A DNA stretch of 64,000 nt. It comes from Vulcanimicrobiales bacterium (GTDB lineage: Bacteria > Vulcanimicrobiota > Vulcanimicrobiia > Vulcanimicrobiales > Vulcanimicrobiaceae). Below, piece after piece: positions 31,752 to 57,099 of this stretch. The stretch covers positions 96,001 to 160,000 of the forward strand of contig JBBRLI010000003.1 in NCBI GenBank assembly GCA_038231455.1. Direction: 5' to 3'. The notes under the pieces are model-generated. The model saw only the letters and a program-made list of their open reading frames with translations. It was not told the origin of the DNA and did not search any database. The position numbers and the translations under genes are program-made. Each line of letters begins with the position of its first letter. The first letter of the stretch is position 1.

Positions 31752-32102
31752 ATGAAACGCGAGCGGCAGGGCCGGATCGATAGCGCGTTACAACGCGCGC
31801 TCTCAAAAATTATTTCCCAGGATGTGCGCGATGTTCGTTTAGGTTTTACGACCGTGACGCGCGTTGAGATCACGCAAGACATGCATCACGCTAAAGTGTT
31901 CGTGTCCATCATCGGCGATCGCCATGTGGCGCGCCAGTCGATGGATGCCTTGCAGAATGCCGCGGGTTTTATTCGTGGCGAGCTAGGCTCGGCTGTCGAT
32001 TTGCGGCATACGCCCGAGCTTATTTTTGTTGAAGATCGGTCGACCGAGAAGGCGATCGAGTTATCCCAAACCCTTGAGAAAGCGAAGGTTATCGATGAGT
32101 AG
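31752..32102 (+). CDS. rbfA: 30S ribosome-binding factor A
   Basis: TVTRVEIT.D..HAKVFVS, AAGFIR and LRHTPELIF.D motifs. Confidence 0.95.
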   Translation: MKRERQGRIDSALQRALSKIISQDVRDVRLGFTTVTRVEITQDMHHAKVFVSIIGDRHVARQSMDALQNAAGFIRGELGSAVDLRHTPELIFVEDRSTEKAIELSQTLEKAKVIDE

Positions 32103-33087: not shown

Positions 33088-33957
33088 ATCCTCGGCTTCG
33101 TCAATCTCTTCAAACCCGCCGGGCCGACATCGACGCAGTTCGGTGCGCGCCTGCGGCGGATTTATGGCACGCGCGACGGCGGAAAGCTGGCCGTCGGCCA
33201 TTTGGGGACGCTCGATCCGCAAGCTGCGGGTGTTTTGCCAATCGCGCTCGGCAAGGCAACGCGACTCTTGCCGCTCATCACGGATCGGCGCAAGGCGTAC
33301 GTCTGCACGCTCGTTCTCGGACGCGCGACCGACACGGGCGATGCCGTCGGCGCGACGATTGCGACCGCCGATGTTCCACGCGACTTTGCCGAACGATTCG
33401 AGGCCTTAGCGGGTGCGTTTACCGGACCGATCGATCAAATTCCGCCGATGTATAGCGCGGTCCAGATCGGCGGCGAGCGGCTCTACGATCTGGCGCGTGC
33501 CGGAAAGACCGTCGAACGTGCCGCGCGGCACGTCACGATTTATGCGCTGACGTTACTGGGTATCGACGACGATTTGCTGCGCCTGCGCATCGCGTGCAGC
33601 GAGGGAACGTACATTCGCACACTCTGCGAAGACATCGCCAAAGCCATCGGGACGGTCGGTCACATGGGTGCGCTGCTTCGTGAGGCCTCGGGGCCGTTCG
33701 TGCTCTATGAATCGAAGCTCATCGAAGACGTCATCGCCGATCCCGGCGGCGCGCTCGTGTCGCCGGAGAGCGTGATCCCAATTCCAACGATCGTTCTCGA
33801 CGGGCGCGATGCGACGGACTTTCGCGCCGGACGGACCGTGGCTCTTGCTGTCGCGCCGGCAGAGAAGCACGTCTTCGTTCGCGATCAGGCGCGACTGCTT
33901 GTCGGCGTCGGTGAGACGGTGGGAACGTTGCTTGCGCCGCGGAAAGTTTTCGTGTGA
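33088..33957 (+). CDS. truB: tRNA pseudouridine(55) synthase; no canonical start before the conserved N-terminus
   Basis: ILGFVNLFKPAGPTS...VGHLGTLDP, PPMYSA and CSEGTYIR. The first TTG (33202) falls inside the catalytic motif. Confidence 0.9.
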   Translation: MLGFVNLFKPAGPTSTQFGARLRRIYGTRDGGKLAVGHLGTLDPQAAGVLPIALGKATRLLPLITDRRKAYVCTLVLGRATDTGDAVGATIATADVPRDFAERFEALAGAFTGPIDQIPPMYSAVQIGGERLYDLARAGKTVERAARHVTIYALTLLGIDDDLLRLRIACSEGTYIRTLCEDIAKAIGTVGHMGALLREASGPFVLYESKLIEDVIADPGGALVSPESVIPIPTIVLDGRDATDFRAGRTVALAVAPAEKHVFVRDQARLLVGVGETVGTLLAPRKVFV

Positions 33958-34892
33958 AGATTCACCACACGATTCCTACGGACGATGCGTATCGGGCGGC
34001 GCGCGCGGCGCATCCGCTCGTCGTCGCGATTGGATTTTTCGACGGGTTCCACCGCGGACATCGCGCAATCGTGCGTGCGCTTCTTGAGGAACGCCGCCCG
34101 GGCGAACGCGCCGCGGTCCTCACGTTCCGCAATCACCCAAGCACGCTGCTGCGTCCCGGAACGGAGCCGCCCCTCATCACGACGCTCGATGAGCGTGTGA
34201 ACAATCTTGCAAATGCCGGTGTCGATGAAGCCTTCGTGCTGAGGTTCGATCACCAGATCGCCTCGCAGTCGCCCAATGAGTTCATCGATACGATGCTCGT
34301 CGACAAAATCGGCGCGCGCGCGATGATCGTCGGTGAGAACTTCCGCTTTGGCGCACGACGTGCGGGCGACGTGGCCTTCGCGCGCACCCAGCTCGAGCTC
34401 CGCGGCGGCAAGCTCGTCGCCGTACCGAACGCCATGGACGATGGCGAGCGCGTCTCCAGCACGCGCGTGCGCTCCGCCCTCAACGAGGGAAACGGCGAGC
34501 TTGCAGATCGGCTCCTTGGGGCGCCGTACACGGTTCGCGGGCTGGTGACATTCGGTGCCGGACGCGGTCACGATCTCGGCTTTCCCACCGCCAATATCGC
34601 GGTCCCGCCCGAGAAACTGCTGCCGCCCGACGGCGTCTATCAGATCGTCGGCCGCTCGGACGGGCGCGATTATCGCGGCCTCGTGTCGATTGGGACAAAC
34701 CCGACCTTCGATGGCCGCAAACGGACCGTCGAGGCCTGGTTACTCGATTTCAACGGTTCGCTCTACGGTCACGAACTTGCGCTGCGCGATTTTCGTTTCT
34801 TACGCGGACAGATCAAATTCGATTCGGTGGAAGCGCTCCTCGAACAAATCCACGCTGACGCCAAAACCGTCCACTTTCCGTCGTTCATCTAG
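33954..34892 (+). CDS. ribF: Bifunctional riboflavin kinase/FAD synthetase
   Basis: GFFDGFHRGH, VSSTRVR, LGFPTAN and GTNPTF motifs. Confidence 0.95.
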   Translation: MKIHHTIPTDDAYRAARAAHPLVVAIGFFDGFHRGHRAIVRALLEERRPGERAAVLTFRNHPSTLLRPGTEPPLITTLDERVNNLANAGVDEAFVLRFDHQIASQSPNEFIDTMLVDKIGARAMIVGENFRFGARRAGDVAFARTQLELRGGKLVAVPNAMDDGERVSSTRVRSALNEGNGELADRLLGAPYTVRGLVTFGAGRGHDLGFPTANIAVPPEKLLPPDGVYQIVGRSDGRDYRGLVSIGTNPTFDGRKRTVEAWLLDFNGSLYGHELALRDFRFLRGQIKFDSVEALLEQIHADAKTVHFPSFI

Positions 34893-44412: not shown

Positions 44413-45076
44413 TCCGGTCGTCGTCCGCGACGCGCGCAAAGTCTACGCGGGCGAAGGCGCGGAGGTAATCGCGCTTGCGGGCGTCTCGCTTACGGTGAAA
44501 GCCGGCGAGATCGTCGCTCTGGTCGGACCCAGTGGCTGTGGCAAATCCACGTTGCTCAACCTCGTTGGCTGTGTCGATTTACCGTCGAGCGGCGAGATTC
44601 TCGTTGACGGCCGCAACACAAGCGACCTCGACGACGATGCGCTGACGCTCTTGCGGCGCGATCGCGTCGGCACGATCTTCCAGTTTTTCAATCTCTTACC
44701 CGCACTCACGGTCGAAGCGAATGTCGGATTACCGCTGGTCTTGCAGCGCGTTCCCCCTGCCGATGTCGCGAAGCGCGTCGCGCGTGCGCTCGAAGAAGTC
44801 GGGATCACCGACAAAGCGCGCGTCTATCCGCCACAAATTTCCGGTGGACAAATGCAGCGCGTGGCGATTGCCCGCGCCATGGTCCACGATCCGGCGATTC
44901 TGCTCGCTGATGAACCGACCGGAAATCTCGATACGCAGAACGGTGCAAACGTGCTGCGGATGCTGCGCGATCTCGCCGATCGCGGTCAGGCGATTCTGAT
45001 GGCAACGCACAGTCTCGAGGCGGCCGCAATCTGCGACCGCACGATCCGCATGCAAGACGGTCGTATCGTCGGATGA
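44405..45076 (+). CDS. ABC transporter ATP-binding protein (LolD/MacB-like)
   Basis: [16 protein letters not shown] and ADEPTGNLD motifs. Confidence 0.93.
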
Positions 45077-47655
45077 ACGCGCTCTTTCGGGCGCTGGTTC
45101 TCGGGCATCTGCGCGGTAACAAACTTCGTACCGGCGTGACGATCCTTGCCGTCGCGCTTGGCGTGGCAATCGCGCTTGCCATCGATCTTGCCAACGCCAC
45201 CGCCGTCTCGTCGTTTGCCTCATCGGTCAACATTATCTCGAGCAAAGTCAACCTCCAAGTCTTGGGTGTCGGTCGCGGCTTCGACGAGAACACCATCCTG
45301 CGCGTGCAAGACGTGCCGGGTGTGCAGTATGCGAGCCCGACGATCGAAGACTCGCTCGTGGTCGGCGCCAAACCCGGCGATCCGCTCTCGGGCGAGATTT
45401 TGCACGTACTCGGCATCGACTTGCTGCGTCCGCTTCCCGGCGATACGACGGCGGGCGGGCTTCCCGGTACCGTCGCCGAGTCCGCAACCACCACCGCGCC
45501 CGATCCGTACGCACTCGTGAACGCTCACGGCGCGTTCTTAAGCGAACGCGTCGCCGCGAAATATCATCTGAAAGTCGGCGATCCGATCGTCGGCCTTGCG
45601 GGCGATCGTCCCGTCACGCTGCGCGTCTCGGCAATCGTTCCCAAGGCCGTCGCGGGTATCGATTCATCGGTCGTCTTCGTCGACATCGCGACGGCGCAAG
45701 AACTCTTTGAAAAAATCGGCCGTCTCGACCGTATCGATCTCGTCATCGACCCGGCGCAACTGCCCGCTGCAATCGCCGCCGTGCGCAAAGTCATCCCGGC
45801 GGGAACGCGCGCGATCGAGCCGGCCGTGCGGACGAGCGAAATCAAACGCATGCTGCGGAGCTTCCAGCTCAATTTGGCCGCGCTCTCGTACATCGCGATG
45901 CTCGTTGGCATGTATCTGATCTACAACACCGTCGCGATCTCCGTCGTCCAGCGTCGCCCGGAAGTCGGGACGCTTCGCGCGCTTGGCGCAACGCGCGGCC
46001 AGATCTTTAAGACCTTCCTTACCGAAGGCGCGCTCTTCGGCATCATCGGGTCGGTCGCCGGGCTCGTGCTAGGCGGTTTGCTCGCGCAGCTTTCGGTCGG
46101 CGCGGTTTCGCGCACCGTCGACGCGCTTTACGTCGCAAGCCACGCCGATCACGTGAACTACGCGCCGCTGGTCTTGCTCAAGGCGTTCGTCGTCGGGGTG
46201 GTCCTTGCGACGATCTCGGCGGTCTTTCCGGCGATCGATGCCGCACGCACGGTTCCGGCGCTCACGATGCGTTCGCAAGGCTTCGAGCGCCGCTCGCCGT
46301 CGCTCGCGCGCAACGCCGCATTCATTGGTGTCGCGCTGCTCCTGGCAGCGTACGCATGCACGTTCGTTCCCGCAATCGATGACATTCCGGTCTTCGGCTA
46401 CGCCGCCGGCCTCTTGATCATCTTTGGCGGTACGCTTTTCGCGCCGATCGCGATCACCACGCTCGCGCACGTGGGCACGCGCCTGCTCGAAAAACGCTCG
46501 CCCGCCGGGACGCTGGCCGTCGCCAACCTCGGATCGTCGCTCATCCGCAATAGCGTTGCGGTGGCATCGCTCATGATCGCGATTGCGATGATGGTGTCGG
46601 TTGCGATCCTCATCGGGTCGTTTCGCACCACCGTCGTTGCGTGGGCCGACGATACGCTGCGGGCCGATTTATTCGTGCGACCGCTCGGGCTTGCCGATGC
46701 ATCGTACGACTCGCGTTTCTCGCCCTCGATCGTCCCTAAAATTCAGAAGCTCGCGGGTGTCGATGCCGTCGACACGTTCCGCGGGATTTCGATTCCGTTC
46801 CGCGACCGCCTCACGACGCTGGGTGCGACCGACTTTTATTCAGCTGCGGATCGAAACAAGCTGCGTTTCATCGGGGCGACCGATATGCGCGCGCTCGCGC
46901 ATCAGTTACCCGGCAACAACGCCGTGGTGATTAGCGAACCGTTTGCGACGCGGTTCAAACTCGACCGTGGGGATTCGTTCGTCCTCAACACGCCCGCGGG
47001 GAACGTCTCGCTCAAGATTTTGGCGATCTATAACGACTATTCCAGCGACTCGGGCATCATGCTCATGGACAAGCGGACGTTCGCGCGTCTCTACCACGAT
47101 GACTCGATCAACTCGATTGCCATTTACGCGAAACCCGGCGTCGATCTTGCGCAACTACGGAGCGATGTCGTGCGGTCCGTGTTGCCGCTCAAGGTTGACG
47201 CCCAGACGACGCGTGAATTGCGCGGTCTTGTTATCCAAATCTTCAATCGGACGTTTGCGATTACGTACGCGCTCTACATCATCTCCATTACGATTGCCGT
47301 GCTTGGCGTCGTGTCCACGCTCTTTGCGCTCGTGCTCGAACGGAAACGGGAGATTGGGCTCATGCGGTATCTTGGGCTCCGGGCGCGTGATGTTCGGCGG
47401 ATGGTGTATTACGAAGCGGGGTTCATTGGGTTTCTTGGGGGCTTAGGTGGGGTTGTCGTCGGGGTGCTGCTTGCGCTGCTGTTGATTTTTGTCATTAATC
47501 GCCAGGCGTTTGGGTGGCTCATCGAGTTGCATATGCCATACGATTTTCTTGGCGAGGCTATTGCGCTTGTTATTGTGGCGGCGCTTATTGCCGGGATTTA
47601 TCCGGCTGGGGTTGCTGCTCGTATTCGTACCGCTGAGGCTGTTCGTGCTGAATAA
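45073..47655 (+). CDS. Double FtsX/MacB-type ABC permease
   Basis: Two repeats of TM, periplasmic domain and RRPEVGTLRALG / RKREIGLMRYLG motifs. Confidence 0.9.
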   Translation: MNALFRALVLGHLRGNKLRTGVTILAVALGVAIALAIDLANATAVSSFASSVNIISSKVNLQVLGVGRGFDENTILRVQDVPGVQYASPTIEDSLVVGAKPGDPLSGEILHVLGIDLLRPLPGDTTAGGLPGTVAESATTTAPDPYALVNAHGAFLSERVAAKYHLKVGDPIVGLAGDRPVTLRVSAIVPKAVAGIDSSVVFVDIATAQELFEKIGRLDRIDLVIDPAQLPAAIAAVRKVIPAGTRAIEPAVRTSEIKRMLRSFQLNLAALSYIAMLVGMYLIYNTVAISVVQRRPEVGTLRALGATRGQIFKTFLTEGALFGIIGSVAGLVLGGLLAQLSVGAVSRTVDALYVASHADHVNYAPLVLLKAFVVGVVLATISAVFPAIDAARTVPALTMRSQGFERRSPSLARNAAFIGVALLLAAYACTFVPAIDDIPVFGYAAGLLIIFGGTLFAPIAITTLAHVGTRLLEKRSPAGTLAVANLGSSLIRNSVAVASLMIAIAMMVSVAILIGSFRTTVVAWADDTLRADLFVRPLGLADASYDSRFSPSIVPKIQKLAGVDAVDTFRGISIPFRDRLTTLGATDFYSAADRNKLRFIGATDMRALAHQLPGNNAVVISEPFATRFKLDRGDSFVLNTPAGNVSLKILAIYNDYSSDSGIMLMDKRTFARLYHDDSINSIAIYAKPGVDLAQLRSDVVRSVLPLKVDAQTTRELRGLVIQIFNRTFAITYALYIISITIAVLGVVSTLFALVLERKREIGLMRYLGLRARDVRRMVYYEAGFIGFLGGLGGVVVGVLLALLLIFVINRQAFGWLIELHMPYDFLGEAIALVIVAALIAGIYPAGVAARIRTAEAVRAE

Positions 47656-48874
47656 AATCGTTAAACAATTGTGGCTGGCGGTGGGGGCTGATAGTGCAGC
47701 TCCGGGGACGCTCGTTTCGCCCATCCATGGGCGAAACATCGCTGCGTGCGGAGTTGCTCTCGCCATCCTGGCTTCGCAACTCCTTACAGCCCCCGGAGCT
47801 GCACTATCAGCCCCCACCGCTGGGCACGATCATTTAGCCGCTTCTTCTAAGCCGTTTACTGCTGCCTTGGCACCATTTCGGTTTTCATTTCCTCGAGATC
47901 ATGCCGCGCATACCGATTATCAATCGGAGTGGTGGTACTACACGGGCCACGTCAAGGCGAAAGATGGGCGTCGGTTTGGTTATGAGCTTACGTTTTTTCG
48001 TGTGGGGTTGAAGCCCGGCGATCCGGCTACGCAAAAGTTGCAGTCGAAGTGGCGTGGGAATGAGTTATATCCCGCGCATTTTGCACTCACCGATGAGCGT
48101 GGCAAGACGTTCGTGCATTACGAGCGGTTTGCTCGGGAGGCGCTTGGGGCTGGGCGGGCTTCGACGAAGGATCTGGATGTTCGCGTTGGGGATTGGTTTG
48201 TGAAGGGTGATGGGCCGATGCAGATGCATGCTTCGGCTGGTGGTGCTTCGATTTCGTTTTCGCAAGCCTCTGAGAAACCGCCGGCTGTTCATGGGCATGA
48301 TGGGGTTTCGAAGAAGGGGCCTTGTCGTTCGTGTGCTTCGCACTACTACTCGCTTACACGGTTGCATACGACGGGGACGCTTGTTGTTGGGGGGCAGTCG
48401 CTTGCGGTTGACGGGCTTTCTTGGATGGACCATGAGTTTGGCTCTGATGAATTGCAGAAGACGCAGGCTGGGTGGGATTGGTTTGCCATTCAGCTTGATG
48501 ATAAGCGTGAGGTGATGCTCTACCGTCTTCGTCAGAAAGATGGGAGCGTTACGCCGCAGTCTTCGGGGTCCGTTGTTGCTCAAAATGGAGCCGTGTCGTA
48601 TCTTCCGCTCGATGCGTTTTCGATAGCGGCGAATGGGTCGTGGAAATCGCCGCACACCGGTGGCACGTATCCATCGGGGTGGCGCGTCACCGTTCCGGGT
48701 TCGAAGATGGATCTTACGATTGTGCCGACCGTCCTCGATCAGGAATTGAGTAATACGACCGGCGGCATTTCGTATTGGGAAGGCGCCGTTGATGTCAAAG
48801 ACACCGCTACGGGACGCGTTATCGGCGTTGGTTATGTCGAGCTCACCGGGTACGCGGGGGCGATCAGTCTTTAG
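47645..48874 (+). CDS. Secreted lipocalin-like / CrtC-AttH family protein
   Basis: FPRDH...EWWYYTG, WMDHEF, GWDWF, YWEG and GYVELTGY motifs. GTG 47645 overlaps the permease stop. Confidence 0.85.
   Translation: MLNKIVKQLWLAVGADSAAPGTLVSPIHGRNIAACGVALAILASQLLTAPGAALSAPTAGHDHLAASSKPFTAALAPFRFSFPRDHAAHTDYQSEWWYYTGHVKAKDGRRFGYELTFFRVGLKPGDPATQKLQSKWRGNELYPAHFALTDERGKTFVHYERFAREALGAGRASTKDLDVRVGDWFVKGDGPMQMHASAGGASISFSQASEKPPAVHGHDGVSKKGPCRSCASHYYSLTRLHTTGTLVVGGQSLAVDGLSWMDHEFGSDELQKTQAGWDWFAIQLDDKREVMLYRLRQKDGSVTPQSSGSVVAQNGAVSYLPLDAFSIAANGSWKSPHTGGTYPSGWRVTVPGSKMDLTIVPTVLDQELSNTTGGISYWEGAVDVKDTATGRVIGVGYVELTGYAGAISL
47678..47820. repeat. 143-bp branched palindromic (REP/MITE-like) element inside a CDS
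   Basis: Perfect 30-bp inverted repeats at 47678-47707 and 47791-47820 enclose hairpins at 47714-47737 and 47750-47783. Confidence 0.85.
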
Positions 48875-50434
48875 CTAGGCGGCGCTGGATTCGCCCTCTT
48901 CGGCTTTTACCGATTTGCGTAAGGCGACGATCGTGCTTTTTGCGTCGGAGCGGATTTCGACGCCGTCCATGAGTGCGCGCATCATCGGGAGGCCGCGGCC
49001 GCGTTCTTCGCGTTTTTGCGATGGGCGCCACTTGCCGTGGTCTTCGATCTTGATGTGGAGTTCGTCGTTTTCGAACGTGGCCTCGACGCGAGCTAAGCCC
49101 GGGCGCTCGTTGCCGTATGCGTGTTCGACGGCGTTTGCGATCGCTTCACCGACGGCCGTAAGCACACCGAAGCGCGTGTCTTCGCTCAAGTTGACGGACT
49201 CAAGCCAGCGCGAGAGAGAACGGCGCACCATGGGGACGGCCATTGGGAGCGCGGAGAATTCGAAGAAGAACGCTTTACGTTCGTGCGGTCCTATGCTTAC
49301 CGTGAGGGTAGCCACGTCATCGGTGTTTTCTTGGTCGGCGAATATCCGCCGCTGCAGAGCGCGCGCCGGCTCGAGTGGTGCCGGCACATCCATCATCTGT
49401 GCGCGCAGGGCATCGAGGAGCATCGCCTCGCCGGCGAGGACGTCGCGCGAATATTCGATGAGTCCGTCGGTGTAGAGTGTGAGAAGCGAGCCGGCCGGAA
49501 GTGTGAACGTCCAGTCCGTCGCGTCCACGCTCTCCGCAATTCCAAGCGGGATGCCATCGGCGGGGAGTCGCTCGGCAAGTCCGGAGGGCAACGTCAGGAT
49601 CGGCGGGGGATGGCCGGCGCTCGCGTACGATAGCGTACACGTGTGCGGATCGATAATCCCGAAGAGCGCGGTGACCATGACCGGGTTCGAACGCATGTTG
49701 ACGATGGTGTTGGCGCGTTCGATGACGAGTGATGGCGATTTTGGATTGATCGCCGATGCGCGGAAGGCTTGGCGGACCTCGCCCATCACCACGGCCGCGC
49801 GTAGTCCGTGTCCGGCCACATCGCCGATCGAAATCGCGATGCGACCGTCGGGGAGTTCGAAGGCGTCGTACCAGTCGCCGCCGACGATTGCTTCCTGCGC
49901 GCCGGGGCGGTAGGCCGCGTCGTAAAGCATGTTTTCGTGCGTTGGGAGCCGCTCGGGAAGCAGCGCTCGCTGAAGCGTATCGGCGACGAGGTGCTCGCGG
50001 GCATAGGCGCGGGCGCTGTCGATTGCAAGCGCCGCCCTTAGTGCGAGTTCTTCGAACAGGACGATTTCGGCGCCATCGAAACCCGCCAAGCGCGCGACGC
50101 GCAGCACGCCGAAGAATTGATCGCGTGCGACGAGCGGAATGTCGACGGCGAGCGGCGCGTCGGGAGGGCCATGAAAGACGAAGCGGCGGTCGCTCAGCGA
50201 AAGCGCGATCGGATGCGTGGCAAAGCTGTTCTCCACATCGCCCGCGTGGGCGAGTGAGATGAAGCCCGGCGGCTCGTCTTCAATCAGCGCAACGGCGAAT
50301 GCGTCGGCGTGATGGGGAACCGTGAAGGCGGCAACCCCGGCAAGCGCCGCAGAGAAATCGAAGGAGGACGCGAGTGTTTTCGTCGCGTGGGAGAGATACC
50401 GTAGCGTCGCCGACAAGCGATCGGCATCGGTCAT
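48875..50434 (-). CDS. GAF + SpoIIE/PP2C phosphatase + anti-sigma HATPase fusion
   Basis: VGGDWYD, GDVAGHG, YTDGL, DDVA, EAIANAVEH and GRGL motifs. The start is uncertain (50434-50482). Confidence 0.9.
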   Translation of the reverse strand: MTDADRLSATLRYLSHATKTLASSFDFSAALAGVAAFTVPHHADAFAVALIEDEPPGFISLAHAGDVENSFATHPIALSLSDRRFVFHGPPDAPLAVDIPLVARDQFFGVLRVARLAGFDGAEIVLFEELALRAALAIDSARAYAREHLVADTLQRALLPERLPTHENMLYDAAYRPGAQEAIVGGDWYDAFELPDGRIAISIGDVAGHGLRAAVVMGEVRQAFRASAINPKSPSLVIERANTIVNMRSNPVMVTALFGIIDPHTCTLSYASAGHPPPILTLPSGLAERLPADGIPLGIAESVDATDWTFTLPAGSLLTLYTDGLIEYSRDVLAGEAMLLDALRAQMMDVPAPLEPARALQRRIFADQENTDDVATLTVSIGPHERKAFFFEFSALPMAVPMVRRSLSRWLESVNLSEDTRFGVLTAVGEAIANAVEHAYGNERPGLARVEATFENDELHIKIEDHGKWRPSQKREERGRGLPMMRALMDGVEIRSDAKSTIVALRKSVKAEEGESSAA

Positions 50435-50652: not shown

Positions 50653-53600
50653 ATGGCCTCTGCCACCACGGAAAAGCCCAAGTCCCAAACAAACGGGACT
50701 CGCGCTGCTGTATCACCGCCGGAGAACGGGAAGCCGAAAAACGGCAAACCGCCGGCTGCGAAAGCCGCAGAAGCAAAATCTGGGAACGGAAAAGCGGCCG
50801 TCGGTAAACCCGCGGCCGCCAAGCCGACCGTGGTGAAGATCCCCGACTCGCCGGACTTCGCCGCGCGACAGCTGCTCGCGGCGCTGCGATCGATGGCCAA
50901 AGGCGACTTCTCGGTGCGCGTTTCGACGGCGTTGCCCGGAATCGACGCCGACATCGCGGAGGCATTCAACGATGTCGTCTCGCTCAACGCGCGCATGGTC
51001 AAAGAGTTCGAACGCATCTCCGATGTCGTGGGTATCGACGGCCGGATTAAAGAGCGCGCCGAACTGACGCAGGCGCCGGGTTCGTGGGCCGATTACATGC
51101 GCTCGCTCAACTCCCTCATCGACGATCTCACGCATCCGATCGCAGAAACGAGCCGCGTACTTGGCGCCGTCTCGCGCGGCGATCTCTCGCAACAGATGGC
51201 GCTCGAAATCGATGGTCGCGCTCTCAAAGGCGAGTTCCTACGGTCTTCCAAGACGATTAACGCCATGGTCGATCAGCTCAACGCCTTCGCGTTCGAAGTG
51301 ACGCGCGTCGCGCGCGAAGTCGGTTCGGAAGGCAAACTCGGCGGTCAAGCGCAGGTCAAGGGTGTCGCCGGTACGTGGAAAGATCTTACGGACTCGGTCA
51401 ACTCGATGGCCGGTACGCTCACAAACCAAATTCGAAACATCGCCGACGTGACGACGGCCGTTGCCAACGGCGATCTTTCGAAGAAGATCACGGTCGAGGC
51501 GCGCGGCGAGATTCTGCAGCTCAAAGACACGATCAACGTCATGGTCGATCAGCTCAACGGCTTCGCCTCCGAAGTCACGCGCGTCGCTCGTGAAGTCGGT
51601 TCCGAAGGTCGTCTCGGCGGACAAGCCGACGTTCGCGGCGTCGCCGGTACCTGGAAAGATCTTACGGACTCGGTCAACTCGATGGCCGGTAATCTGACGA
51701 GCCAAGTTCGTAACATCGCTGAAGTCACGACCGCCGTCGCCAAAGGCGATCTTACGAAGAAGATCACCGTCGATGTTCGCGGTGAGATGCTCGAACTTAA
51801 AGCCACCGTCAACGTCATGGTCGACCAATTGAACGCCTTCGCATCGGAGGTTACGCGCGTCGCTCGTGAAGTCGGTTCCGAAGGAAAGCTCGGCGGCCAG
51901 GCGCGCGTTGAAGGCGTCGCCGGAACGTGGAAGGATCTCACCGACAACGTCAACTCGATGGCCGGTAATCTGACGAACCAGGTTCGTAACATCGCCGAAG
52001 TCACGACGGCCGTTGCCAAAGGCGATCTTAGTAAGAAGATCACGGTCGACGTTCGCGGCGAAATGCTCGAACTCAAAGGCACCGTCAACGTCATGGTCGA
52101 CCAGCTGAACGCCTTCGCATCGGAGGTCACGCGCGTCGCTCGTGAAGTCGGTACGGAAGGTCGACTCGGCGGTCAGGCGCAGGTCGAAGGCGTCGCCGGT
52201 ACGTGGAAAGATCTTACGGACTCGGTCAACTCGATGGCCGGTAACCTCACCAACCAAGTGCGAAACATCGCTGAAGTTACGACGGCCGTTGCCAACGGCG
52301 ATCTTTCAAAGAAGATCACGGTGTCCGTTCGCGGCGAAATGGCAGAGCTCAAAGGCACGATCAACACGATGGTCGATCAGCTCAACGGTTTCGCATCGGA
52401 GGTCACGCGCGTCGCGCGCGAAGTGGGTTCCGAAGGCAAACTCGGCGGCCAAGCGCAGGTGCAAGGCGTCGCCGGAACGTGGAAAGATCTCACGGACTCG
52501 GTCAACTCGATGGCCGGTAATCTCACGGACCAAGTCCGAAACATCGCTGCCGTTACCACCGCCGTCGCTCGAGGCGATCTTTCAAAGAAGATCACCGTCG
52601 ACGTGCGCGGCGAAATGGCCGAGCTCAAGTCGACCGTCAACGTCATGGTCGATTAGCTGAACGGTTTCGCATCGGAAGTCACGCGCGTCGCTCGCGAGGT
52701 GGGTTCGGATGGAAAACTTGGCGGTCAAGCCCAGGTGCTCGGCGTGGCCGGTACGTGGAAAGATCTCACGGACTCGGTCAACTCGATGGCCGGTAACCTT
52801 ACGAACCAGGTTCGTAACATCGCCGAAGTCACGACGGCCGTTGCCAACGGCGATCTTTCAAAGAAGATTACCGTCGACGTTCGCGGTGAGATGGCCGAAC
52901 TCAAGAACACCGTTAACACGATGGTCGATCAGTTGAACGCCTTTGCATCCGAAGTGACGCGAGTTGCGCGCGAAGTCGGTTCGGACGGAAAACTCGGCGG
53001 TCAGGCCCAGGTGCAAGGCGTCGCCGGCACGTGGAAAGATCTCACGGATAACGTGAACTTCATGGCCTCGAATCTCACCTCTCAGGTACGAAACGTCGCC
53101 GACGTTACGACCGCCGTTGCGAAGGGCGATCTGAGTAAAAAGATTACCGTCGACGTTAAAGGCGAGATGCTCGAACTCAAGGGCACGATCAACACGATGG
53201 TCGATCAGCTCTCCGCCTTCGCATCAGAAGTCACCCGCGTCGCGCGCGAAGTCGGCACGGAAGGCAAACTCGGCGGTCAGGCTCGCGTCGAAGGCGTCGC
53301 CGGTACGTGGAAAGATCTTACGGACTCGGTCAACTCGATGGCCGGTAACCTCACCGCTCAGGTGCGTAACATCGCAGAAGTCACGACCGCCGTTGCGAAG
53401 GGCGACTTGAGTAAGAAGATCACCGTTGACGTTCGCGGCGAAATGCTCGAACTCAAAGGCACGGTCAACGTCATGGTCGACCAGCTGAACGCCTTCGCAT
53501 CGGAGGTCACGCGCGTCGCTCGTGAAGTGGGTTCCGAAGGTATCCTCGGCGGTCAAGCCCAGGTGCAAGGCGTCGGCGGCACGTGGAAAGATCTCACCGA

Positions 53601-56600
53601 CAACGTTAACTCGATGGCCTCGAACCTGACCAACCAAGTGCGAAACATCGCGAAGGTGACGACGGCCGTTGCCAACGGCGATCTTTCAAAGAAAATCACC
53701 GTTGACGTTCGCGGCGAAATGCTCGAACTCAAAGACACGATCAACGTCATGGTCGATCAACTCAACGCCTTCGCATCGGAAGTCACGCGCGTCGCCCGAG
53801 AAGTCGGTTCCGAAGGAAAGCTCGGCGGTCAGGCCGTCGTGCTCGGTGTCGGCGGCACGTGGAAAGATCTCACGGACTCCGTGAACTCGATGGCCGGTAA
53901 TTTGACGAACCAAGTGCGCGGTATCGCGAAGGTCGTCACGGGTGTCGCCAACGGCGATCTCAAGCGCAAACTCACGCTCGATGCCAAAGGCGAAATCGCC
54001 GAACTTGCGGACACGATCAACGGGATGATCGATACGCTCGCAACGTTCGCCGATCAGGTGACGAACGTCGCCAAGGACGTCGGCTTCGAAGGCAAACTCG
54101 GCGGTCAGGCCGAGGTCCCCGGTGCTGCCGGCCTGTGGCGCGACCTTACGGACTCGGTCAACCAGCTCGCCGCGCAGCTCACCTCGCAGATTCGCGCGAT
54201 CGGTGAAGTTGCAACGGCCGTTACCAAGGGCGACCTTTCGCGAACGATCGAAGTCGGCGCGCAAGGCGAGGTCGCACAGCTCACCGAGAACGTCAACGAA
54301 ATGATCCGGAACTTGCGCGACACGACGCGTAAGAATCAGGAACAGGACTGGCTGAAGACCAACCTCGCGCGCTTCACCGGTATGCTCCAGGGTCAAAAAG
54401 ATATCAAGACCGTTGCGAAGCTCATCATGTCGGAGCTCGCACCGCTCGTCTCGGCGCATACCGGCGTCTTCTATCTCAACGAGCCGGTCGATGAGACGCC
54501 GCTGCTCAAACTGCTAGCGGGTTACGCGTTCAACCGCCGCAAGAACATCACATCGCAGTTCGGTCTTGGCGAAGGGCTCGTCGGCCAGTGTGTTTTCGAA
54601 AAAGAACGCATCCTCGTCACCAACGCCCCCGCCGACTACATTGAAATCAGCTCGGGTCTAGGCTCGTCGTCACCGTTTAACATCATCGTGCTGCCGGTGC
54701 TTTTCGAGGGCGACGTCAAAGCCGTCATCGAGCTTGCCAGCTTTGAGAAATTCAGCGAAATCCACTTACTCTTCTTGGATCAGCTGACAGAATCGATCGG
54801 TATCGTTCTCAATACGATCGCCGCCAACATGCGCACGGAAGAACTGCTCAAACAGTCGCAGTCGCTCACCTCGGAACTCCAGAGCCAGCAGCTCGAACTC
54901 CAGCAGACCAACGAAGAGCTGGAAGAAAAAGCCCGCCTGCTCTCGGAGCAAAACGAAGAGGTCGAACGACGCACGCGCGAGATCGACGAAGCCCGTCGCG
55001 CGCTCGAACAAAAGGCCGAGCAACTCGCTCTCACCTCGAAATACAAATCCCAGTTCCTCGCGAACATGTCGCACGAGTTACGCACACCGCTCAACTCGCT
55101 GCTACTGCTCTCAAAGCAACTCGCGGACAACAAAGAGAACAACCTCACGAGCAAACAAGTCGAGTTCGCCTCGACGATCCGCCGCTCGGGTACGGATCTG
55201 CTCACCCTCATCAACGATATTCTCGACCTCTCGAAGATCGAATCGGGAACGACGTCGGTGGACTTCGCCGAACAGCGCATCCACGACATTGCCGATGACG
55301 TGGAACGCACGTTCCGCTCGCTCTCGCTCGAACGGGGTCTTGCCTTCGGGATCTCCGTCGATGACAACGTCCCGCCGGCGATCGAAACGGACTCCACGCG
55401 CCTCATGCAGATCATTAAAAATCTGCTCTCGAACGCGTTCAAGTTCACGCAAGAAGGCCACGTCGAGTTGCGTATTAGCCAAATCGACCGGACCGACACG
55501 ATGGGGAACACGGGACCGTTTGTTGCCTTCTCGGTCTCGGATACCGGCATCGGCATTCCGACGGACAAGCACAACGTGATCTTCGAGGCCTTCCAACAAG
55601 CCGACATGAGCACGGCCCGCAAATACGGCGGGACGGGCCTCGGCCTTGCGATTTCGCGTGAAATCGCCGGCTTGCTCGGCGGCGATATGACCGTTGAGAG
55701 CGAACCGGGCGTCGGCTCGACGTTTACGTTCTTCCATCCGCTTGGCGCACGCAAAGAACGTACGAACGACAACGCGATCATGCTCCCGCCGAAGCCCGCC
55801 AAGGCCGGCGGAGCTGACGCGCCGTTCCGTGCACTCCCGCCGCGACCCGTGGTGGAACGTGCGGCGCAGATCGCGAACGCACGCGCCGGCGAAATCGAAG
55901 TCGACGACGATCGCAATGCGATCAAGCCGACGGACCGCACCGTCCTCATCATTGAAGACGACGCCACGTTCGCGCGGATTCTGCTCGGACTCGCACGCGA
56001 TCGCGGCTTCAAAGGCATCACCGCACACACCGGGGCCGACGGTATCGCGCTTGCACGTGCCTACATGCCCGATGCCATCACGCTGGATATTCGTTTGCCC
56101 GATATCGACGGCTGGCAGCTGCTTGACGCCATCAAAAAAGACCCGACCACGCGCAACATCGCGGTACACGTGATCTCGGGCGAAGAACAGTGGCAGCGCG
56201 CGCTCGACTCGGGCGCGGTCGCGCACTTGAAGAAACCCGCAAGCGAAGATGCGCTGACGGAGGCCTTCGACAACCTGCTCGGTTTCGCGGATAACACGAC
56301 GCGCAATCTGCTTGTCATCGAAGACGACGTCACGCAACTCTCAGCGATGGCCAATCTCGTCTCATCGGGCGAAGTCACCGTCACGGCGGTGAGCACCGGC
56401 AGCGAGGCGCTCGCAGCGCTCGATCGCGGTCGTTTCGACTGCGTCGTCGTTGACCTTGGTTTGCCCGATATCGACGGCATCCAACTCATCGAGCAGATCA
56501 AAGCACATCCGGCGCACGTGCGCGTCCCCGTCATCGTCTATACGGGCCGGGAACTCGACGAACAACAGGAGTCCGCCCTGCGGCGCCTGAGTCAATCGAT

Positions 56601-57099
56601 CATCATCAAAGACGCGATGTCACCCGAACGCCTGATCGATGAGACGAGTTACTTCCTCAACCAAGTCGAGGCGCGACTGCCGAAACGTCCACAAGCCCAG
56701 ATCGGAACGGCAGCGAGCCTCGAGGGGAAGATGGTGATCATTGTCGACGATGACGTACGTAACATCTACGCACTCAAATCGGCACTCGAAGAATTCCGCA
56801 TGAACGTTCTCACCGCGGAGAGCGGAATGGAGTGCATCGAAACGCTGCGCGGGCGCACGGACGTCGACGTCGTTTTGATGGACATCATGATGCCGGAGAT
56901 GGACGGCTACGAGACGATCCGTCGTATCCGAGCCGACAATCAGTGGGTTGCGCTCCCGATCATCGCCCTCACCGCAAAAGCGATGAAAGGCGACCGCGAG
57001 AGCTGCCTTGCTGCCGGTGCATCGGAGTACATCAGTAAACCGGTCGATGTGGATCAGCTCGTTTCGCTGATCCGTGTCTGGCTTGATGTGACCGTGTGA
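50653..57099 (+). pseudogene. Giant poly-HAMP hybrid histidine kinase (HAMP array-GAF-HisKA-HATPase-3xREC; OsaA/group III-like) interrupted by one in-frame TAG at 52654-52656
   Basis: ORFs 50653-52656 and 52699-57099 are in the same frame. [15 protein letters not shown] and three receivers with Asp. Confidence 0.8.
51260..54300 (+). repeat. Tandem 276-bp (92-aa) HAMP coding repeats, about 11 copies
   Basis: ATGGTCGA recurs at 51541, 51817, 52093, 52369, 52645, 52921, 53197, 53473 and 53749. Confidence 0.9.

Follow-up and report, generated by a model that had tools for sequence, protein, structure and literature searches.

A loss of cytosine from third codon positions in two neighbouring genes of a Vulcanimicrobiales bacterium is one case of a general property of a repeated, DNA-level palindrome in the Vulcanimicrobiota/Eremiobacterota lineage. 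The genes, which encode an ABC-type permease and a secreted lipocalin-like protein, flank a copy of the palindrome (hereafter the element) in the 64,000-nt stretch of DNA analysed here (hereafter the window; contig C3:96001–160000 of genome G000, a 3.71 Mb metagenome-assembled genome of 106 contigs, 93.67% complete, at ~10–14× depth). On the strand that carries the element in its sense orientation, composition has shifted toward T and G, largely at synonymous sites, over a span that starts a few hundred bases upstream of the element and ends ~1–1.5 kb downstream of it. This skew is co-located with copies of the element, follows their orientation, is derived and is directional between near relatives. 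We consider it likely that it reflects an element-linked, polar, strand-asymmetric substitution bias which would arise from recurrent single-strandedness.

Cytosine loss at the permease–lipocalin locus

The features of the locus are given in Table 1. The original prediction, made from the letters of the window alone, reported C-ending codons at 51, 15 and 6 per 100 in three successive parts of the two genes, and our recount reproduced these figures exactly. Read in frame, third positions per 100 codons were C 51, G 32, T 12 and A 5 at 45901–46200, G 41, T 40, C 15 and A 4 at 47341–47640, and G 49, T 42, C 6 and A 3 at 48122–48421. In 30-codon sliding counts, the fraction of third positions occupied by C (C3; A3, G3 and T3 for the other bases) dropped from ~0.43 to 0.17 at 47320–47350, within the permease gene, whose last ~110 codons hold the upstream part of the skewed tract, and was back to 0.3–0.4 at 48650–48800, within the lipocalin gene. 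The tract extends ~330 nt upstream and ~1 kb downstream of the element, and its content of G plus C (GC) is ~5–8 points lower than outside.

To place this tract in its genome, a score of (G+T–A–C)/N, referred to as the (G+T) excess, was computed in 73,633 windows of 300 nt (standard deviation 0.073). The genome maximum, 0.393, falls at 47351–47650 of the window studied here. Genome-wide there are 33 merged outlier regions with an absolute value of at least 0.25, the longest of which (1,400 nt) is 47201–48600 at this locus. A milder version of the cytosine loss had also been proposed for rbfA (31764–32072, + strand), but this gene, 15.6 kb from the element, proved only mildly atypical (C3 0.27, T3 0.28), lies outside the 33 outlier regions and has no palindrome near it.

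Skewed tracts lie downstream of element copies

A covariance model of the element (R1), built from four copies, matched 10 copies in G000. At 8 of these 10, an outlier region lies directly downstream, in element orientation, and 10 of the 33 outlier regions fall within 2.5 kb downstream of a copy. Over all 10 copies, the mean (G+T) excess in successive 200-nt bins downstream was 0.29, 0.20, 0.17, 0.19, 0.13, 0.13 and 0.09, and ~0.05 thereafter, while on the upstream side the rise was limited to the last 200–400 nt (0.15 and 0.06). Taken over 0–1000 nt downstream, the mean was 0.195, and in 200,000 random sets of 10 places the value never rose above 0.075 (permutation null for this excess: mean 0, standard deviation 0.053); seven copies were individually past the 0.1% tail of the null. 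The seven copies of the congeneric genome G001 gave the same profile (0.23, 0.17, 0.18, 0.17, 0.10 and 0.13). The bare end motif of the element, GGCACGAT, carried no tract at its 550 sites (mean (G+T) excess –0.004). Among the other 23 outlier regions, a comparably long hairpin was found upstream at one only (C7 ~33800–34000), and the rest look like low-complexity or ordinary coding sequence. The co-location with element copies for which the original prediction had proposed a check is therefore present, but the halo it described around the element is polar, lying mostly downstream in element orientation, and not symmetric.

The genes downstream of the copies are mutually unrelated (a CrtC/lipocalin protein, gatC–gatA, a beta-lactamase-family protein, glycine dehydrogenase subunit 2 and a Vgb-lyase-family protein). 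Genes co-oriented with the element have T/G-rich third positions, as in gatA (A 0.05, C 0.16, G 0.40, T 0.39). Opposite-strand genes at C12:58865, C10:77138 and C1:314420 show C3 of 0.50–0.54, A3 of ~0.2 and T3 of 0.07–0.09, which is the same G+T enrichment on the element strand and hence excludes explanations from codon usage or translation. The predicted strand specificity is borne out in this form, the sign being set by the strand of the element whichever way the genes point. Strand asymmetry associated with transcription of the host genes was rejected, since at the three anti-oriented loci the coding strand is C/A-rich and the element strand rules. Replication strand skew was likewise rejected, although by a weak test in a genome of 106 contigs: background GC skew 4–30 kb around the 10 copies ranged from –0.030 to +0.031 with no consistent sign (six negative and four positive in element orientation; genome-wide standard deviation 0.013).

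A sequencing or assembly artefact, for example damage-type C>T changes in a sediment sample, might be suspected in a metagenome-assembled genome at this depth. Independent Logan contigs of the same run, however, match 46500–47663 and 47753–49500 with 0 differences, the only break being within the palindrome. The same tracts also recur at orthologous loci of a separate congeneric genome, and the pattern respects both codon position and element orientation. For practical purposes the artefact explanation is refuted.

The skewed state is derived

Relatives were compared at the gatA and permease–lipocalin loci. The gatA gene is present in all 41 genomes of the same class, and 30 loci were examined. 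Here C3 and T3 were 0.16 and 0.39 in G000 and 0.21 and 0.36 in G001; all of the other 28 loci had C3 of 0.32–0.49 and T3 of 0.04–0.21. Among these loci, an R1 match upstream of gatA was found in G000 only. In G001 the element upstream of gatC has been deleted, leaving ~20 nt of its left arm, yet the tract persists. Protein identity of gatA within the family is 70–79%.

The permease and lipocalin genes are orthologous and syntenic in relatives, occurring together at 16 of the 19 lipocalin loci from other genera, and among 21 lipocalin loci cytosine loss was seen in G000 and G001 only. Rows from genomes flagged as unpublished (G020 and G022 for gatA; G009, G020 and G036 for the lipocalin) leave the result unchanged. 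In a further genome, G015, the element is inverted at the same intergenic site, and the last 100 permease codons there have C3 of 0.64 and G3 of 0.21, i.e. they are G-rich on the element strand; the skew flips side with the inverted element, which indicates that its direction is set by element orientation. The G015 lipocalin gene is near normal in composition. On these comparisons the skewed state is derived. As orthologues in other genera are normal and syntenic, the shift came about by substitution in resident genes and not by whole-gene transfer, as the original prediction had argued.

Direction of change between congeners

At one locus G001 carries the element and G000 does not (a 1.2-kb gene is there instead), and differences were counted from the G000 base to the G001 base on the element strand. 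Within 0–500 nt downstream, divergence was 0.315, with C>T over the reverse at 30:7, A>G at 22:11, C>G at 20:12, A>T at 9:2 and G>T at 30:7. At 500–1000 nt it was 0.158 (C>T 10:0, A>G 19:5, C>G 17:5), and past 1 kb it was ~0.11 with symmetric counts. A mild bias of the same sign extended as far as 1 kb upstream. The reverse situation, with the element in G000 and not in G001, is found at gcvPB, where changes toward and away from G/T stood at 19:5 and 32:13 within 1 kb and were symmetric thereafter.

Pooled composition agrees with this direction. Over 16 copies, T/(T+C) was 0.39 at baseline, 0.54 over the 200 nt directly upstream of the element and 0.58 over the 200 nt directly downstream, returning to baseline by ~1.4 kb, and G/(G+A) rose from 0.62 to 0.68 downstream only, with A+G staying at ~0.50. 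This keto skew without purine skew is a shift from amino to keto bases, the outcome expected if C and A on one strand were deaminated. The C→T and C→G changes that had been predicted are therefore recovered from the congener differences at two loci and from pooled composition, mainly as C>T, with A>G and C>G contributing. No single context of deaminase type emerged from the trinucleotides around the lost cytosines, and the ranking of these trinucleotides mirrors the G/T richness of the neighbours.

These loci also bear on the possibility that the tracts were replaced by recombination or transfer from a low-C3 donor. The drop in GC of ~5–8 points, the fairly sharp boundary inside the permease at 47320–47350 and the raised divergence in the first 1 kb at the G001-only locus would fit an import. 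No donor codon usage, however, would be rich in T3 and G3 on one strand and in C3 and A3 on the other with a sign given by the orientation of a neighbouring repeat. Syntenic orthologues also show ordinary identity (gatA at 70–79%; permease–lipocalin synteny at 16 loci), and in the tract the first and second codon positions show no increase in divergence. We reject transfer as very improbable. Of the three explanations that the original prediction had set against its own, transfer and assembly artefact both fall away in this manner, and a lack of association with copies is contradicted by the 8 linked copies of 10.

Generality across genera

The effect was followed in 79 copies from 8 other genera (G003, G005, G012, G015, G017, G019, G026 and G027). 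The (G+T) excess was +0.055 over 0–1000 nt downstream vs –0.014 upstream (paired Wilcoxon P = 3e-8, a value which overstates the evidence as kin are not independent), and 62 of the 79 copies were positive. The effect was clear in five genomes, with downstream exceeding upstream at 7 of 7 copies in G019, 6 of 6 in G012, 9 of 11 in G017, 4 of 4 in G015 and 27 of 38 in G005. As the excess was present both where the downstream gene was co-oriented (0.040, n = 32) and where it was anti-oriented (0.066, n = 47), gene orientation is not the explanation.

An association of this kind could also run the other way, with the element inserting preferentially, in a fixed orientation, beside pre-existing G+T-rich tracts. 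Positional preferences do exist: the gene upstream is co-oriented at 52 of 79 copies, and the site is often between convergent genes. There are, however, just 33 such tracts in the genome, with 10 of them within 2.5 kb downstream of a copy, element-free orthologues are normal in all other genera, and the G000 orthologue at the G001-only locus has no tract. In G005, moreover, the copies are young and numerous and their tracts weak. Such reverse causation is rejected, with about as little probability left to it as to transfer.

Divergence within the tracts

The term hypermutation, under which the cytosine loss had first been described, is not supported in the sense of a raised ongoing rate. Third-position divergence between G000 and G001 in the shared tracts at the studied locus was 0.24–0.37, compared with 0.32–0.44 in the other tabulated gene stretches and 0.49 in the 47 codons directly before the tract, hence no such rise is seen there; an increase in divergence was confined to sequence beside an element that one species alone carries (0.315 and 0.158 vs ~0.11 at the G001-only locus). 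Sites with T in third position differed between the species at 27% of 141 inside the tract vs 52% of 106 outside, and sites with C at 43% of 51 inside vs 28.5% of 319 outside. A two-state equilibrium calculated by hand from these counts, with some C3 sites assumed to be constrained, predicts approximately the observed flux, and a reversed fixation bias fits about equally well. This equal fit means that the rate data leave mutation vs selection undecided, and the tract acts as a stable, shifted state.

Mutation or selection

If the bias is mutational, the element-sense strand would most likely be the one that is repeatedly single-stranded, or the one whose lesions become fixed, and the amino bases C and A on this exposed strand would deaminate to give the keto bases T and G. 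Three candidate machines may be named, in each of which polarity would be set by the asymmetric core of the element. Transcription or R-loops that extend outward from the element or pass through it are possible but doubtful; slightly more doubtful still is nicking at a specific site, or the loading of a helicase at the asymmetric core, with strand displacement or repair directed by the nick as the next step; and a hairpin-induced replication gap beside a hairpin on one strand seems quite unlikely.

Several results weigh against a mutational bias from single-strandedness. The shared tracts have no rise in third-position divergence, and this, together with their stable T3 sites, is compatible with a new mutational equilibrium and equally with a changed fixation bias, i.e. 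selection. At gatC the tract has outlived its element in G001, so the continued presence of the element is not needed on that time scale. G>T differences are in excess too (30:7 at the G001-only locus, 14:4 at gcvPB), for which deamination alone is insufficient. The raised divergence at the G001-only locus could come from an imported segment, and gcvPB is the weaker evidence because G000 tracts are in general slightly stronger than those of G001, such that a lineage effect could explain its asymmetry. The effect is weak in G005 (0.047 vs –0.022) and absent in three genomes (higher downstream at 2 of 6 copies in G003, 3 of 6 in G027 and 0 of 1 in G026). A promoter and terminator scan of 47000–48300 detected no promoter-like site in or beside the element, with counts no higher than in shuffled sequence, and no Y1/HUH transposase was found in the 93.67% complete genome G000.

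The main rival is selection on composition, in which the ~1 kb downstream of the element would be kept rich in G+T and poor in C on the element strand because of some role that the DNA or its transcript plays, such as escape from Rho, which loads on C-rich, G-poor RNA, or the formation of stable R-loops or G-rich structures. Selection would account for the unraised divergence and for T3 sites being steadier (27% vs 52% differing) and C3 sites less steady (43% vs 28.5%), a reversed preference rather than added mutation. It would also fit the excess of all four amino>keto changes, transversions among them, and the frequency of GGG, TGG, GGT and TTG in the tracts, ~2.1–2.3 times that of the genome. 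Such selection, however, would have to prevail over codon usage in core genes (gatA, gcvPB) and operate on the antisense strands of convergent genes. It must do so for a tract which has no known function, and which was unchanged after the deletion of its element in G001. Selection for G+T content also does not predict G>T over T>G (30:7). On balance we regard selection as unlikely, and a mutational bias from recurrent single-strandedness as the probable cause.

A mutational origin would mean that a small non-coding repeat imposes a strong, polar and strand-specific mutation regime on neighbouring essential genes, as in gatA, where C3 has fallen from ~0.45 to 0.16. It would provide a local cause for atypical codon usage and for GC and skew anomalies that are routinely read as horizontal transfer, and the tracts would offer replicated natural records of single-strand exposure in a phylum with almost no cultivated members. 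The agent at the element, be it transcription, nicking or unwinding, would then represent a possible new kind of activity on DNA hairpins. As the copies occur in both orientations, have been gained and lost between congeners and in one case lie inverted at the same site, the question of mutation vs selection for bacterial base composition can be put directly to the test.

More tentatively, the repeat may be an active DNA-level device whose asymmetric core recruits a strand-specific enzyme, for instance a helicase, a nickase or a complex transcribing outward, which repeatedly peels the element-sense strand off ~1 kb of flanking DNA. By analogy, this would be a bacterial, repeat-anchored counterpart of promoter-proximal somatic hypermutation or of leakage from repeat-induced point mutation (RIP). 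A mobile repeat would then rewrite synonymous sites of resident core genes (gatA, gcvPB, the secreted lipocalin) in a direction set only by its orientation, and atypical codon usage that looks like horizontal transfer would have a source not recognised until now.

Comparison with known systems

Transcription-associated asymmetry produces an excess of G+T on the non-template strand, and GC skew accompanies R-loops in the first ~1 kb after CpG-island promoters; the accepted cause is that the non-template strand is single-stranded. The element tracts resemble this in that one strand gains G and T from a fixed starting point, in a polar fashion, and the effect fades over ~1–2 kb. They differ in that the sign ignores the direction of the host genes and is set by the repeat, in that no promoter was detected, and in being far stronger than ordinary bacterial transcription skew ((G+T) excess to 0.39, C3 to 0.03). 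Bacterial replication gives rise to GC and TA skew, and mitochondrial strand gradients depend on time spent single-stranded. Shared with these is a keto excess without purine excess, dominated by C>T with A>G secondary, and graded with exposure. Unlike replication skew, the element effect is local (~1.5 kb) and anchored to 10 dispersed elements in both chromosomal orientations.

C>T mutagenesis spreading into flanks is known from fungal RIP leakage, from AID somatic hypermutation downstream of promoters and from APOBEC clusters on resected DNA, all of which are eukaryotic, enzyme-driven systems that raise the mutation rate. Clustered, one-strand C>T change within ~1 kb of an anchor is common to these and to the element. 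The element tracts, however, show no deaminase link, sequence context or raised steady-state divergence, and their changes are fixed, mostly synonymous and common to two species.

As far as abstracts describe them, the intergenic palindromic repeats of bacteria include repetitive extragenic palindromes (REP) and REPINs with RAYT transposases, ERIC, and Correia-type miniature inverted-repeat transposable elements (MITEs) (PMC3733652, PMC3184786). On that description, the element is like them in being multi-copy, intergenic, hairpin-forming, non-autonomous and often placed after gene ends, and unlike REPs (20–40 bp) in its 166-nt length, 35–40 bp stem, conserved three-way core and a genome without a Y1 transposase. 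To our knowledge, no effect on flank composition has been reported for the REP/REPIN, ERIC or Correia-type families. Literature listings and abstracts likewise contained no flank-composition effect of bacterial palindromic repeats, and nothing on repeats in Eremiobacterota.

Structure and spread of the element

The outer stem of the element is 35–40 bp long, with 46-nt inverted-repeat arms at 47662–47707 and 47791–47836 in the window, and its interior forms a three-way junction with two inner hairpins and loops of the CATCC(A/T)TG type. Its conserved ends are TGTGGCT... and ...GGCACGAT, and a 201-nt stretch spanning it folds at –130 kcal/mol. In an alignment of 51 copies (from G000, G001, G005 and G015), 95.9% of 2,897 pair cells were paired, two-sided changes outnumbered one-sided changes by 578 to 18, G.U pairs made up ~1%, and covariation in all seven helices was almost purely from one Watson–Crick pair to another. 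This points to a palindrome acting at the level of DNA (a hairpin or cruciform, or arm-to-arm copying) rather than to a structured RNA. The arms differ strongly among copies of one genome and the core is conserved, which suggests arm-to-arm correction or a function as a DNA hairpin or cruciform.

R1 matches occur in 27 of the 41 genomes of the class, G000 included, with at least 53 in the complete genome G005. Many copies in relatives sit at contig ends, and the Logan contigs break inside the copy in the window (47663–47753); short-read assemblies are broken up by the repeat, and draft genomes therefore give copy numbers that are too low. Three G000 copies (C11:35959–36155, C4:164493–164687 and C10:77138–77336) have in common, within the loop of the second inner hairpin, an insertion of 32 nt that forms a small hairpin of its own; this marks a sub-family and argues for spread by copying. 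A hammerhead-like CTGATGAG word in the copies with this insertion had no Rfam match.

Known structured RNA families were rejected as an identity for the element, the best Rfam matches being plant miRNA precursors (48 bits vs a cut-off of 168) and the long copy having no match. A REP/REPIN–RAYT element was rejected on size (166 nt vs 20–40 bp) and because PF01797, the Y1 transposase family, was not found in G000, a search which was positive in 6 of 14 control genomes. As regards MITEs, the element is multi-copy and its arms are inverted repeats, but the arms differ between copies with compensating changes, and target-site duplication was not recognised at the copies. No recurrent neighbour gene such as a transposase or nuclease was seen, with no protein family beside more than 4 of 34 G005 loci.

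Across the 79 copies in other genera, the upstream gene was co-oriented at 52 and the downstream gene anti-oriented at 47, the element often lying just past a stop codon between convergent genes. The word CTTCTTCT(T/A)AGCCGTTT recurs after four copies. Upstream of gatC (L050/L051; G000 C9:88975–88995), the deleted G001 copy has left a 20-nt remnant of its left arm, and both species have, 45 nt downstream, GGGTGGTGGCACGAT, which resembles the two ends of the element joined and is possibly the scar of a second, excised copy. Elsewhere, a copy together with the adjacent Vgb-lyase-family gene (~2.8 kb; L004 4812–7672, G000 C12) is absent from the congener, which has ~150 nt at this site (G001 C4:195223–195373), and one edge of the indel coincides with the element. 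The hairpin at G000 C7 ~33800–34000 is another long palindrome (–133.6 kcal/mol over 200 nt) with ends of GATCGTGCC/GCACGATC type, missed by R1. It lies directly upstream, in skew orientation, of the (G+T)-excess outlier C7:33351–33800, and may be a diverged relative with the same effect.

Genes of the window

Table 1. Coordinates of the element, the two arms of its tract and the flanking genes, as positions in the window.
Feature	Position	Strand	Details
ABC-type permease gene	45073..47655	+	860 amino acids; Pfam: two FtsX and two MacB_PCD stretches; open reading frame translation
Upstream arm of tract	47320..47655	+	C3 from ~0.43 to 0.07–0.2; T3 up to 0.67 beside the element; genome-wide (G+T) maximum here
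Palindromic repeat element	47668..47833	+	166 nt; covariance model R1 score 147 bits
Downstream arm of tract	47834..48700	+	C3 0.03–0.23; T3+G3 ~0.8–0.95; decay to C3 0.3–0.4 by 48650–48800
Secreted CrtC/lipocalin-like (AttH-type) protein, mature part	47876..48874	+	Pfam PF07143, PF17186; translation

The lipocalin frame is open back through the element to 47489, and its start codon is inferred to be a TTG or GTG in the left arm of the element. Orthologous lipocalins have an N-terminal signal peptide whose coding sequence lies between the stop codon of the permease gene and the FPRDH..EWWY motif. This stretch (47656–47890 in the window) is taken up in G000 and G001 by the element, which is read through in frame and gives a signal-peptide-like segment (..GRNIAACGVALAILASQLLTAPGAA..). 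In G015 (L082 2529–2790) an intact signal peptide is followed by the inverted element as ~52 inserted codons in frame, hence the repeat can be accommodated within a coding sequence without disrupting it.

A separate A+C-rich outlier (–0.29) with no element nearby occurs at 54801–55200, inside a gene for a hybrid histidine kinase (52699–57099, + strand; 1,466 amino acids) with six HAMP stretches, a GAF domain and three receiver stretches; it is probably owing to amino-acid composition.

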